A program made the translations under genes and the position numbers. The notes beneath the pieces are model-generated. The model was not told the DNA's origin. It worked only from the letters and a program-made list of their open reading frames with translations, and searched no databases. This document shows, piece after piece, positions 5,816-35,262 of a stretch of 64,000 nt of DNA. The stretch lies in sequence record PZ452584.1. The stretch is one strand, 5' to 3'. This stretch comes from a phage. Each line of letters opens with the position of its first letter. Within the stretch, counting starts at the first letter, position 1.

Positions 5816-6007
5816 CTATCCGCATAATACACCATACAAAGGCTCATTAGAGCTTCTAAATTTTATGCGCTTATATGTTATAGTTCCTTCTGCTTTAGCT
5901 TTATCATGAGACTCTTTAAAGCGTCTCATCATTTCCTCTTTAGAGGAACGAATTTTATTATAATCTATTTCAGAAGTCTGGTGTTCATCTTTCACAGTTG
6001 CCACCAT
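5816..6007 (-). CDS. Hypothetical small protein
   Basis: Track ORF, same strand and compact spacing as flanking early genes. Confidence 0.3.
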   Translation of the reverse strand: MVATVKDEHQTSEIDYNKIRSSKEEMMRRFKESHDKAKAEGTITYKRIKFRSSNEPLYGVLCG

Positions 6008-22071: not shown

Positions 22072-23085
22072 TCATTTATAATAACTTCGGTGGTTTTCAA
22101 GATACACCTTCTCAAGGAAGTCATCCCAGAAACCCATGTCTACTTTTTGCTGCATACCGTTCTTAGAAGCTTCAGTAGATGCTGCTTCTACTTGATCGAC
22201 CACATCTTCCAAAAACTCTTGAACTGTTTTAAATGGATGCTTACCCAACTTCACGTCGAGAATAAATGGAGCATCTTGGAGTGGATAAACCAAGTCACCA
22301 GTTTTGTAAATTTCCAATAGTTGGAGTCCACCACGACAAGCATGACTCAGAGCTTTCCAGTCAATACCTTCATTGGCTTCGGCCTTACGAGCACGTTCAC
22401 CGTATTCAGCATCAAGTTTATTCAAAGACTGCTTAAGCTCAATAAGAGAAAGCGTTGTCTGATATTTACGACCCAACACAGTGTAGAACGTTTGTGGGCC
22501 TGTTTTCTCATGATTATGGAACACCCATTCACAGAATTCGTTTTCTGGAAGACGATGCTTAATATCTTCAACTTTAGTACGACGCTGCTTAATGGAACCG
22601 TCTTCTTGGTAATCAACCCATTGCTCAGGGATTTGATTAACTACTTTCAATACATCGCGTAATGCAGCCAAACGAGAACCCTTGACACCGTATTTAGAAG
22701 CTTGCTTGCGAACATATCCTAAATAAGATTTCATGTTAGTCGTATAAAAACGAGAACGGTTGTCTTGAATAAACTTCCACACATCAGGCAAATCAGATTT
22801 AACCACTAATTCAGGTGGAGTGTGAAGCATATCCAATGCTACAGTTTCACCATCTGCTGCTAATTTAAAGAAATACTTAAGACTATACAATTCGTGGTCA
22901 ATATCATCTTTAGTGTTTTTAGATGATGTGTTGTTGGTGTTTTTACTCATGTGCTCTTTGACATTTCCGATAAGAATATCGCGAGCAGGAGGAACAAAAA
23001 TTTCTTTAAAATCTACATCAGATTCTGGGGTAGAAGTTCCATAAAGATGACTACCAAAATAGCTTTTCATTACTGTTTTCATCAT
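22072..23085 (-). CDS. Pol-beta-superfamily nucleotidyltransferase-like protein
   Basis: N-terminal YFGSHLYGTSTPESDVDFKEIF matches GS-x(9-13)-DxD nucleotidyltransferase signature; 337 aa. Confidence 0.5.
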   Translation of the reverse strand: MMKTVMKSYFGSHLYGTSTPESDVDFKEIFVPPARDILIGNVKEHMSKNTNNTSSKNTKDDIDHELYSLKYFFKLAADGETVALDMLHTPPELVVKSDLPDVWKFIQDNRSRFYTTNMKSYLGYVRKQASKYGVKGSRLAALRDVLKVVNQIPEQWVDYQEDGSIKQRRTKVEDIKHRLPENEFCEWVFHNHEKTGPQTFYTVLGRKYQTTLSLIELKQSLNKLDAEYGERARKAEANEGIDWKALSHACRGGLQLLEIYKTGDLVYPLQDAPFILDVKLGKHPFKTVQEFLEDVVDQVEAASTEASKNGMQQKVDMGFWDDFLEKVYLENHRSYYK

Positions 23086-23203
23086 TCAGCCTTATATTCA
23101 ATAACAGGACATACTTTAGCTTTACGGGCTTTTAAAAATTCGACGATAATAGATTTCTTGGGTTGAATAGGAGGTAAACCTTTATACGCCCTATCAATAT
23201 TTT

Positions 23204-23542
23204 CTACATGTAAAGCATAATCCTTTTCCATTTATAATCTTTATATTTTTCATGCAGTTGTGCAGGAATAACAAATGAACCGATAATAAGTAAAACAAGC
23301 AAAATGGCAAGTATAAATGCTGATGGAATAAGAGTCCATAAACTACCAAAAATAAGCCATTTCTGTATGATTTCTGCACAGATGATAGTTAGCCCTACGA
23401 GTATAGCACATCCGAAAAAAGAAACGAAAAATGTAGGAATAACAATAGACCAAAAATATGCACATAGTGTCTTAGGTCGTTGCCATTCATCGTTAAACAA
23501 TTTGAATAATTTATAGTGCCAAGAGTTTTCATTAATAATCAT
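23204..23542 (-). CDS. Hypothetical membrane protein
   Basis: 112 aa, several hydrophobic helices. Confidence 0.4.
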   Translation of the reverse strand: MIINENSWHYKLFKLFNDEWQRPKTLCAYFWSIVIPTFFVSFFGCAILVGLTIICAEIIQKWLIFGSLWTLIPSAFILAILLVLLIIGSFVIPAQLHEKYKDYKWKRIMLYM

Positions 23543-30184: not shown

Positions 30185-30444
30185 ATACTTGCTTCTTTGA
30201 GTTTCGTTTTAGCAATAGTTAACTGATCGAGGCTTTCGGCGTAATTCTTCGCGAGTTCATCATCTTCACAGCTATCAAATGCTTCCCAAAATTCATTGTA
30301 TAAAGCATCAAAGATAAGTCCTAAACGAACTTCAGCGTCTTTAATAGCATTTACTTTACCGATTTTTTCGTCGGTATGTGGCTTATAACCTTTAATATCT
30401 TCAATCATATTTGACTTCCTCACCAGTACATAAATCGTATTCAA
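30142..30444 (-). CDS. Hypothetical small helical protein (vs.4 position)
   Basis: Track ORF; occupies the position of T4 vs.4 by gene order only. Confidence 0.35.
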
Positions 30445-30622
30445 CTAAACGAATAGGTTCATGAATGCCATATCCCTGAACAGAAATTTCTGTAGTAGGA
30501 TAAATTCCATTAATATCACCCATGTTCCATGCTTCGTTAAATTGCTGTTCGCCTGAATTACTAAACCATTCGGCAAAAGCATTTAGCACATCTTCAGAAC
30601 CTTCAATAATTATCTTTGCCAT
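30401..30622 (-). CDS. Hypothetical small protein
   Basis: Track ORF. Confidence 0.3.
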   Translation of the reverse strand: MAKIIIEGSEDVLNAFAEWFSNSGEQQFNEAWNMGDINGIYPTTEISVQGYGIHEPIRLVEYDLCTGEEVKYD

Positions 30623-30983
30623 TACAAACTTTCAGTAAAGGTACGAGCGATAACGTCGCGCTGCTGTTCCGGAGTCAGAGAGTTAAAGCGAACTGCATAA
30701 CCGGATACACGGATGGTCAGCTGCGGATATTTTTCCGGATGCTTAACTGCATCTTCCAGAGTTTCACGACGCAGAACGTTAACGTTCAGGTGTTGACCAC
30801 CTTCAATTTTAACTGTAGGCTGTGGCTCAATTTCAATTTCACGGGCATGCAAACCATAGAAAATTTCCGGGTCTACAAAAGAGTCCTCTTTAAAGGTTTA
30901 GAAACGATAATTCGTGCTTGAATACCATCTTCAAAATAAATAGTACCTTTATGTGTGCCTTCAAGAATTTGATATGCTTTCAT
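30622..30983 (-). pseudogene. GrcA/YfiD-like autonomous glycyl-radical cofactor gene, reading frame broken once
   Basis: C-terminal frame encodes ...[63 protein letters not shown]; a different frame from ATG at 30981-30983 encodes [30 protein letters not shown] then stops; one extra base at gtttctaaaccttta would join them. Confidence 0.5.
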
Positions 30984-30990
30984 ATAAACC

Positions 30991-31371
30991 TCAATTAGAA
31001 AATAAATTTATCCAAGATTGTTCTTTAATTAAAAATGGCTCAGAATCATATGCCATTAAACTTTGCGTAATTAATCCTTTAAAAGGTCCATCAATAAATT
31101 CCATGGTAAAATATGGAATTTTATTCATTAGCCGTGCATTAGGAGCAGTGCACAAAACTCTGCATCCTTTGAATACGCCTTTTTGTAATTTGTATTGCTT
31201 GGGATAAAATTCGCTTAAAATGTTGTTATTTGCCAAAATTTCAAAATGATTCACCAATTTATTTTTAATAGTTTTTGGCGAAAAATAAAGATATTCGAAA
31301 AGCTGAGTGTCTGTCATCATTGCATTCCGATTACGAAAAACTGTGGACGAGTAATACCACCAATGCAACAT
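30991..31371 (-). CDS. Hypothetical protein
   Basis: Track ORF. Confidence 0.35.
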
Positions 31372-31793
31372 TTAATATTACAGCAGCAGTGTACTGTGTC
31401 AATATGGACACTATAAATCTTATCCATATCAGGAGATTTGACAGGCTCATCAATTATATATAAAATTCGCGAAAGCGATAAACCTCTGAACTTGCTTCCT
31501 TTATTACCGATAAAACTGCGCACAGAATCAGTAAATAAACGAAAACGTATATCATCATTAGAATAACGCGAAAATTCCTTTTTGATGCTATTTGCAGAAA
31601 TTTTAGCGTAAGCTGAAGTATTAGAAAGAACAATAACTGTTCCACCATCTATACGAAGTGTGCAATACTGCTTAAGTAAGTCTTCAAATGGTGGGATATA
31701 ATCGTTTTTACAAATTTCTTCTACTCTAGCATCAGAATGGTGTGTAAAAGCATTCATCAGGGATAGATAAGGACCAGTTAAAAATGTTCTCAT
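31317..31793 (-). CDS. Hypothetical protein
   Basis: Track ORF. Confidence 0.35.
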   Translation of the reverse strand: MRTFLTGPYLSLMNAFTHHSDARVEEICKNDYIPPFEDLLKQYCTLRIDGGTVIVLSNTSAYAKISANSIKKEFSRYSNDDIRFRLFTDSVRSFIGNKGSKFRGLSLSRILYIIDEPVKSPDMDKIYSVHIDTVHCCCNIKCCIGGITRPQFFVIGMQ

Positions 31794-34433: not shown

Positions 34434-34903
34434 TCAGTGATAAAGTTATTTAAATTTTGAGCATATTTCTTTTCATCAAAAATCTTTTGCTGTCTGCGTA
34501 AACGCCATGGCATTTCAATGAACATACGCCATATTCCTGATAATACTGCTGCTGTAAAAATATTAACAAGTATAGTTAAAAGAATCCAATCGCCTATTCT
34601 GTCCATTGGATTTTTTATAAAAAAGTAAAATACGAATGATGATATAGGAAGACTAATGATATACCACAGAAGAACCTTCTTATCTGTGAACCAATCAGCA
34701 TTTGTTAACTTAGCGCGACCATTTTGAATACACACGAATTTATCATCTGTTACAGTAAATGGCTTAGCTGCTTGATATCCCATTCTAAACTCCCTAATTA
34801 ATCGTTTCTTTGTATCTTCGGAACAACCATTCCAGTCAACTCTATCAACTGAAATGCCATCATCCCCATCATCTAAATCATACCAGCGAGTTTTTAAAAT
34901 CAT
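34415..34903 (-). CDS. Hypothetical membrane protein (family of three tandem ORFs)
   Basis: Hydrophobic helices; ends ...FITECRKLK with stop overlapping the next start. Confidence 0.4.
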
Positions 34904-35262
34904 TTAATTTTCCTACAATCACTCACAAACTCTTTCATTGCTTCATTTTCAATATAAGACATGTAGCTATTATATTCTTTTAATTGTATTTTGTAATCTT
35001 TTTTTCTTTGCCAATTTATTTTAAAATTATCATAATGAAAATATAAAATGATACCAAAGAATGAAAATAATGAAATAATTTTAGTATAGTGAAGTTCACT
35101 CCAAACTTCTATTATATCTACTGTACCACTGATTTTTAAAATAAAACAGTCAATTAATAGTCCAATAAGACTACCCGTAAGAGCTGCAGCCAACGCCACA
35201 GCAAAAATCAAAAATGACTCAGGAAGCGAATATTTGACTTTATTTAGTTTTGGCTTTTGCAT
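34900..35262 (-). CDS. Hypothetical membrane protein (family of three tandem ORFs)
   Basis: Two hydrophobic helices; ends ...FVSDCRKIK. Confidence 0.4.
   Translation of the reverse strand: MQKPKLNKVKYSLPESFLIFAVALAAALTGSLIGLLIDCFILKISGTVDIIEVWSELHYTKIISLFSFFGIILYFHYDNFKINWQRKKDYKIQLKEYNSYMSYIENEAMKEFVSDCRKIK

Follow-up and report, generated by a model that had tools for sequence, protein, structure and literature searches.

Why does a T4-like phage genome carry a glycyl-radical cofactor gene in two pieces, and does the break belong to the phage or to its assembly? The gene lies in the window, the whole 64,000-nt stretch of sequence record PZ452584.1 that was analyzed, which is DNA of a T4-like phage (Tequatrovirus); a 1-kb region of it has matches in 797 phage records, with 95 to 99% identity in 459. 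Positions 30622 to 30983 on the minus strand are gene vs.6, a homologue of T4 Y06I and of E. coli GrcA (YfiD). A sequence-only reading had recognized a GrcA/YfiD-like gene there, with its frame broken by a single base at a short homopolymer, and had left the choice between genuine inactivation and homopolymer error to further analysis; the slippery register of TTTAAAG and the host identity of the 3′ half did not figure in it. The features of the locus are as follows.

30983..30873, minus strand: truncated N-terminal vs.6 ORF of 36 aa (MKAYQ...SKPLKRTLL*), ending in TAG at 30875-30873.
30897..30899, minus strand: A3 run, site of the 1-nt deletion at codons 29/30 (A4 in relatives).
30894-30888, minus strand: heptamer T_TTA_AAG, in an X_XXY_YYZ register created by the deletion.
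30622..30897, minus strand: rest of vs.6, lying in the -1 frame (91 codons and a TAA stop), with the glycyl-radical domain and its RVSGY radical site.
30852..30622, minus strand: 76-aa ORF starting with TTG within that remainder, carrying the glycyl-radical module.
30622..30806, minus strand: host-identical module of 185 nt, with 98.9% DNA identity to E. coli grcA.
30401..30622, minus strand: vs.5, 73 aa, its ATG overlapping the vs.6 TAA (TAATG).

Both ORFs were found on the minus strand as they had been described. The N-terminal part is indeed in another frame and stops after ...KRTLL; its 36-aa product has residues 1 to 29 of the normal 120-aa protein followed by out-of-frame PLKRTLL. The C-terminal 76 codons do encode the glycyl-radical module, as the 76-aa ORF matches Pfam PF01228 Gly_radical with an E value of 8.5e-19 (68.5 bits; cut-off, 22.2). 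When the frame is repaired, residues 22 to 120 align with E. coli GrcA (PDB 6OWR; E = 8.6e-42) and the last ∼61 residues are identical. These two E values put the homology of the split gene to Gly_radical and GrcA far above chance. The repaired protein also matches TIGR04365 over profile positions 25 to 126 of 126 (153.3 bits, E = 3.7e-45), and it stays below the 170-bit equivalog cut-off because the phage N terminus is divergent. Many Tequatrovirus phages have a 120-aa protein that is 98 to 99% identical to it, and annotated relatives often name the gene “autonomous glycyl radical cofactor.” The GrcA/YfiD-like identity is thus upheld by the Gly_radical match, the 6OWR match, and the annotated vs.6 relatives. 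The locus sits in the denV-regB early cluster, flanked by vs.7 (Y06J family) and vs.5, in synteny with RB32, VEc74, and SfPhi01.

T4 Y06I and E. coli YfiD/GrcA are reported to be activated by the pyruvate formate-lyase (PFL)-activating enzyme and to restore the activity of O2-cleaved PFL (Wagner et al. 2001, as cited in PMC8683613). The window gene occupies the same place as the T4 gene, with vs.7 and vs.5 as neighbors in the denV-regB early region, but its ORF is broken after codon 29 by a 1-nt deletion, and only a 36-aa peptide is predicted. The repaired product and E. coli GrcA are of like size, both consist of a disordered N-terminal half and a glycyl-radical module, and the C-terminal ∼61 residues are identical, whereas divergence is strong over the N-terminal ∼58 residues and the window protein is 7 residues shorter, phage-borne, and frameshifted. 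The single uninterrupted ORF of ∼120 to 127 aa that defines GrcA/YfiD proteins is not present in the window and appears once one A is restored.

The nature of the lesion is clear from comparison with T4-type orthologues, the check that the earlier reading had proposed. In VEc74, RB32, a Mosigvirus, and a Klebsiella phage, vs.6 is one 363-nt ORF of 120 codons, compared to 362 nt in the window, and an alignment with four relatives shows this as the sole length difference. On the coding strand, tctAAAAcc in the relatives becomes tctAAAcc in the window, i.e., one A is lost from an A4 run. Because of this missing base, translation ends after 36 aa and the glycyl-radical module falls in the -1 frame. 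The break had been ascribed to either an A run or a T run; the alignment bears out a single base in a short homopolymer and assigns it to the A run, so that the T run drops out. Putting one A back gives a protein of 120 aa, not the ∼124 aa that had been estimated.

How widespread is the A3 allele? A 91-nt megablast query returned 476 matching phage records, with a best identity of 98.9%, which corresponds to the single gap; in their inspected best alignments, all 476 carry A4. A 43-nt query, with 20-nt flanks around the run that force every 28-nt seed to cross A3, did not find the A3 junction in 50,697 curated phage records. Exact and degenerate, haplotype-tolerant patterns of the allele gave no match in IMG/VR, JGI metagenome contigs, or GTDB genomes. 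Among the matches listed, vs.6 was intact (120 aa) in 8 of the 8 contigs whose vs.5 protein is identical to that of the window. The exact 36-aa product was found on two Logan contigs, from three samples: ERR7569065_30708 (6,184 nt), with an identical contig in two samples, and SRR28171614_74 (5,602 nt). The DNA of both contigs shares TCTAAACCTTTAAAGAGG with the window, which means that they carry the same deletion. The A3 allele is therefore rare, yet not private to the window.

The window and the two Logan contigs represent three haplotypes, distinguished by synonymous single-nucleotide polymorphisms upstream of the run (ATC-GTT, ATT-GTC, and ATT-GTT) and by further differences downstream. 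The upstream genes also differ, being denV-DUF7412-201aa-vs.7 in one Logan contig, IpIII-168aa-vs.7 in the other, and denV-vs.8-vs.7 in the window. The window vs.8 (31317-31793, minus strand) is itself unusual, encoding 158 aa compared to 179 to 189 aa in relatives owing to an in-frame deletion of ∼63 nt, and this exact 158-aa protein is on record nowhere else. The other genes on both A3 Logan contigs have normal lengths, and their remaining indels that are not multiples of 3 nt are intergenic or at known variable positions. Both contigs, as well as a third Logan contig, SRR15275263_254235, end exactly where their 31-mers become common with host grcA, as is expected of de Bruijn assembly when phage and host are in the same sample. 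Another Logan contig with the exact 76-aa ORF was considered as a further A3 case and rejected: it has the wild-type A4 run and starts inside the gene with a Nextera adapter.

The presence of A3 in independent read sets and on different haplotypes favors a real allele. We consider it probable that A3 is a true loss-of-function allele of vs.6, a T4-type accessory gene, and the lesion is most likely a recurrent one in a dispensable gene. We infer that it is real in the window genome, that the allele yields hardly any functional protein or none, and that the phage can bear the loss because vs.6 is dispensable. The proposed course of events is as follows. Replication slippage would drop one A from the A4 run at codons 29 to 30, ribosomes would terminate after 36 residues, and the downstream glycyl-radical module would be essentially untranslated. 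An intact module would be activated by the host PFL-activating enzyme and replace the oxygen-cleaved C terminus of pyruvate formate-lyase; in the A3 allele, the sole way back to the module frame would be spontaneous -1 slippage at U_UUA_AAG, at an estimated ∼0.2 to 0.4% of normal output. The phage would then fall back on the host's own GrcA.

The alternative that survives best is a homopolymer under-call, in which vs.6 is whole in the phage, with all 120 codons, and an A was lost in assembly or base calling. The lesion is, after all, a -1 change in a short A run, more than 470 relatives carry A4, and A3 is absent from the curated phages, IMG/VR, JGI metagenomes, and GTDB. In addition, the module, although untranslated, shows no decay, with 60 of 60 residues as in host GrcA; a very recent lesion would fit this equally well. 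This reading is best judged against the quality of the window assembly as a whole, and for that every indel that is not a multiple of 3 nt was listed for the window versus RB32, SfPhi01, and VEc74. Most of these indels are intergenic A/T-run changes, lie in tRNA spacers, or are compensated within divergent stretches, and all 8 window tRNAs are intact. Only two break conserved ORFs, the one in vs.6 and one in the homologue of RB32ORF096c at ∼23228. Beyond 23228 and 30897, no frame is broken in ∼60 kb of window coding sequence, of which ∼20 kb belongs to essential baseplate and tail genes, and the other private 1-nt indels of the window are intergenic or move a start codon with the ORF still open. 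By these comparisons, the window assembly is not riddled with errors.

The second frame break merits description of its own. The RB32ORF096c homologue (23082-23542, minus strand) is split into ORFs of 112 aa and 49 aa by a coding-strand change from A5 to A4 at ∼23224-23228. RB32ORF096c is a 153-aa predicted membrane or signal-peptide protein that adjoins nrdC.11. The A5-to-A4 change is absent from the best-matching relatives, which keep the extra base, and no public assembly has the 112-aa product. A second -1 change that is private to the window, on the same strand of the same 64 kb, thus breaks another conserved ORF, and two same-strand homopolymer contractions are the pattern of an under-calling platform. 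It is because of this second break that an error at vs.6 still deserves weight, and the question left undecided by the earlier reading has moved toward a real allele: A3 on other haplotypes speaks for the allele, and the break at ∼23228 keeps the error alive. Against an error stand the independent assembly of A3 from other read sets and other haplotypes, on contigs without other broken genes, and the fact that an A4 run is short for a consensus-level error. On balance, we regard an under-call as possible but rather unlikely.

Two other window genes show length changes at homopolymers. In a-gt.2 (ORF 5816-6007, minus strand), a private GGG-to-GG change at codon 3-4 (∼5980) puts the usual ATG out of frame, and an upstream ATG keeps a 63-aa ORF open compared to 57 aa in relatives. 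In e.3 (ORF 34900-35262, minus strand), the C terminus is set by the length of a poly-A tract at ∼35000-35010; the coding strand has A7 in the window (120 aa) and A11 in RB32 (98 aa), and the protein is 101 aa in one Logan contig. This tract may be hypermutable.

The intact state of the module can be read in another light when the module is compared with host DNA. In the E. coli genomes listed, chromosomal grcA matches the last 185 nt of the window vs.6 at 98.9% identity. The best match to the module was at 95 to 99% in all 5,426 E. coli genomes, and the 5′ half of vs.6 had no DNA match in E. coli genomes. The same was seen in phages of different hosts, with K. pneumoniae ATCC 13883 and E. coli SK1144 as host comparators. 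The last 183 nt are 96 to 99% identical to E. coli grcA in E. coli phages, at 46 to 48% GC, and 93% identical to K. pneumoniae grcA (96% over 173 nt) in Klebsiella phage Roth04, at 57% GC; the E. coli-phage and Klebsiella-phage modules are only 83 to 84% identical to each other. The 5′ ∼180 nt of vs.6, by comparison, are phage-like, with 34 to 36% GC, and homologous among phages. In the window, the module has 48% GC compared to 34.7% for the whole window. These patterns of identity and composition suggest repeated replacement or conversion of the vs.6 module of phages by host grcA, through ongoing gene conversion or re-acquisition. Since the module tracks the host in this way, its pristine state in a frameshifted allele says little about selection on the module. 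Nothing relevant to phage grcA decay or to exchange with the host was found in the searchable literature.

If the deletion is real, could the allele still make the full-length protein? The deletion leaves an upstream frame of aaa cct tta aag agg act ctt ttg tag, where the heptamer T_TTA_AAG lies in the 0 frame within the ORF overlap, in perfect X_XXY_YYZ register and with the 0-frame stop 4 codons on. A -1 slip at this site would yield a 120-aa product reading ...SKPLKEDS... in place of the normal ...SKTFKEDS..., with only T30P and F31L as changes. Sharma et al. (2014, PMC4066793) count U_UUA_AAG among the top 15 -1 motifs of E. coli. The measured efficiency of U_UUA_AAG was 0.177% without a stimulator and 0.354% with the IS911 stimulators, against a background of ∼0.055%, and it reached 15.8% with the IS3 pseudoknot (PMC4066793). 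The usual stimulators are a stable hairpin or pseudoknot 5 to 9 nt downstream or a Shine-Dalgarno (SD)-like element upstream, of which the hairpin folds were computed. Folds of 48 and 88 nt downstream of the heptamer were not above shuffled controls: the best downstream hairpin (-9.8 kcal/mol) lies 10 nt past the heptamer with a z score of -0.7, and the 88-nt fold has a z score of 0.0. No SD-like element is visible upstream of the heptamer. The two-ORF arrangement is also not conserved, with no A3 in phage records and a single ORF annotated in the sampled relatives.

A meaningful coincidence was considered for the slippery heptamer and rejected. With the shifted frame open from the start codon as far as nt 108, the loss of any one base within the first ∼90 nt exposes TTTAAAG; this holds for 59 of the 253 distinct 1-nt deletions in vs.6 (23%). 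Given the lack of a stimulator, the low published efficiency, and the exposure of the heptamer by many deletions, slippage is treated here as a trivial leak of about 0.2 to 0.4%, not as programmed recoding. The site resembles the -1 frameshift sites of dnaX (A_AAA_AAG), IS3/IS911, and the phage tail chaperone G/GT in having an X_XXA_AAG-type heptamer near a 0-frame stop, where a -1 shift fuses overlapping ORFs. It differs from them in having no evident stimulatory hairpin, pseudoknot, or SD-like element, in its unconserved two-ORF layout, and in its origin by a deletion in a normally uninterrupted gene.

Three functional interpretations of A3 remain to be weighed against simple loss of function. 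First, A3 might be a selected recurrent variant, either a recoded low-expression vs.6 or a reversible A-run on/off switch; we consider this very improbable. If a switch were true, T4-like phages would tune or shed GrcA, perhaps together with coupled vs.5/vs.4 (acb2), according to oxygen or host defenses. Second, the allele might be recoded, with a -1 slip on U_UUA_AAG making a full-length 120-aa GrcA-like protein and thus a low-expression or switchable vs.6. The register and nearby stop of the heptamer, its place among the top 15 motifs with 15.8% under a strong pseudoknot (PMC4066793), a phage tRNA-Leu(UAA) that reads the P-site codon, and the recurrence of A3 on three haplotypes are all in keeping with this. 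The window site is nevertheless without a stimulator, the unstimulated efficiency is 0.18%, ∼3-fold over background (PMC4066793), the heptamer is not specific to this lesion (59/253 deletions), and nearly all relatives have a plain single ORF, which together make functional recoding very improbable. Third, the C-terminal module might be made alone as a truncated spare part, by re-initiation at TTG 30852, ∼20 nt past the premature stop; the 76-aa ORF does span the region equivalent to YfiD 61-127, which still restores cleaved PFL, albeit with ∼4-fold-lower radical installation and weaker binding (PMC8683613), but its frame is devoid of ATG and GTG, no Shine-Dalgarno sequence precedes the TTG, and related genomes give no sign of a separate start, so that this is the least probable of the three. 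Even taken jointly, functional recoding and separate expression of the module have little probability.

With a genuine loss-of-function allele as the preferred reading, an effect on neighboring genes also comes into view. vs.5 may be translationally coupled to vs.6 through the TAATG overlap, and vs.4, an Acb2/Tad1-like gene, is the other gene concerned. Since the vs.6 stop overlaps the vs.5 start, the premature stop in vs.6 might lower the expression of vs.5 and vs.4.

Other kinds of damage to vs.6 were found in public data. SRR15275263_254235 (1501-1704) has a different vs.6 frameshift, a CCC-to-CC change plus an extra GAAATT repeat. In OM632671.1, a 193-kb phage, the tail end of an unrelated 685-aa gene stands in place of the first 29 vs.6 codons (1380-1560); it joins vs.6 exactly at TTAAAGAGGAC, where the window frame is broken, and the 91-aa ORF that is left starts with GTG. 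In three vs.6 proteins from ENA, in-frame deletions take out part or all of the glycyl-radical loop. vs.6 is evidently lost from time to time, and a dispensable vs.6 fits such varied, independent lesions. A rearrangement of another type is seen in Salmonella phage Lv5cm (902-1427), where a partial tandem duplication of the vs.6 5′ region has given a 61-aa “GrcA” ORF followed by the full 120-aa gene.

The window vs.6 is a frameshifted copy of an already characterized phage accessory gene, and nothing about it is outside known biology. Taken alone, the finding matters little and serves mainly as an annotation flag (pseudogene). Two aspects reach further. First, the module is near-identical in DNA to the grcA of the phage's own host genus, a relationship that was not found described in the searchable literature. 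Second, because the same 1-nt lesion recurs in independent phage samples, T4-like phages appear to lose vs.6 repeatedly, and such repeated loss is relevant to the value of the PFL spare part for phage fitness.
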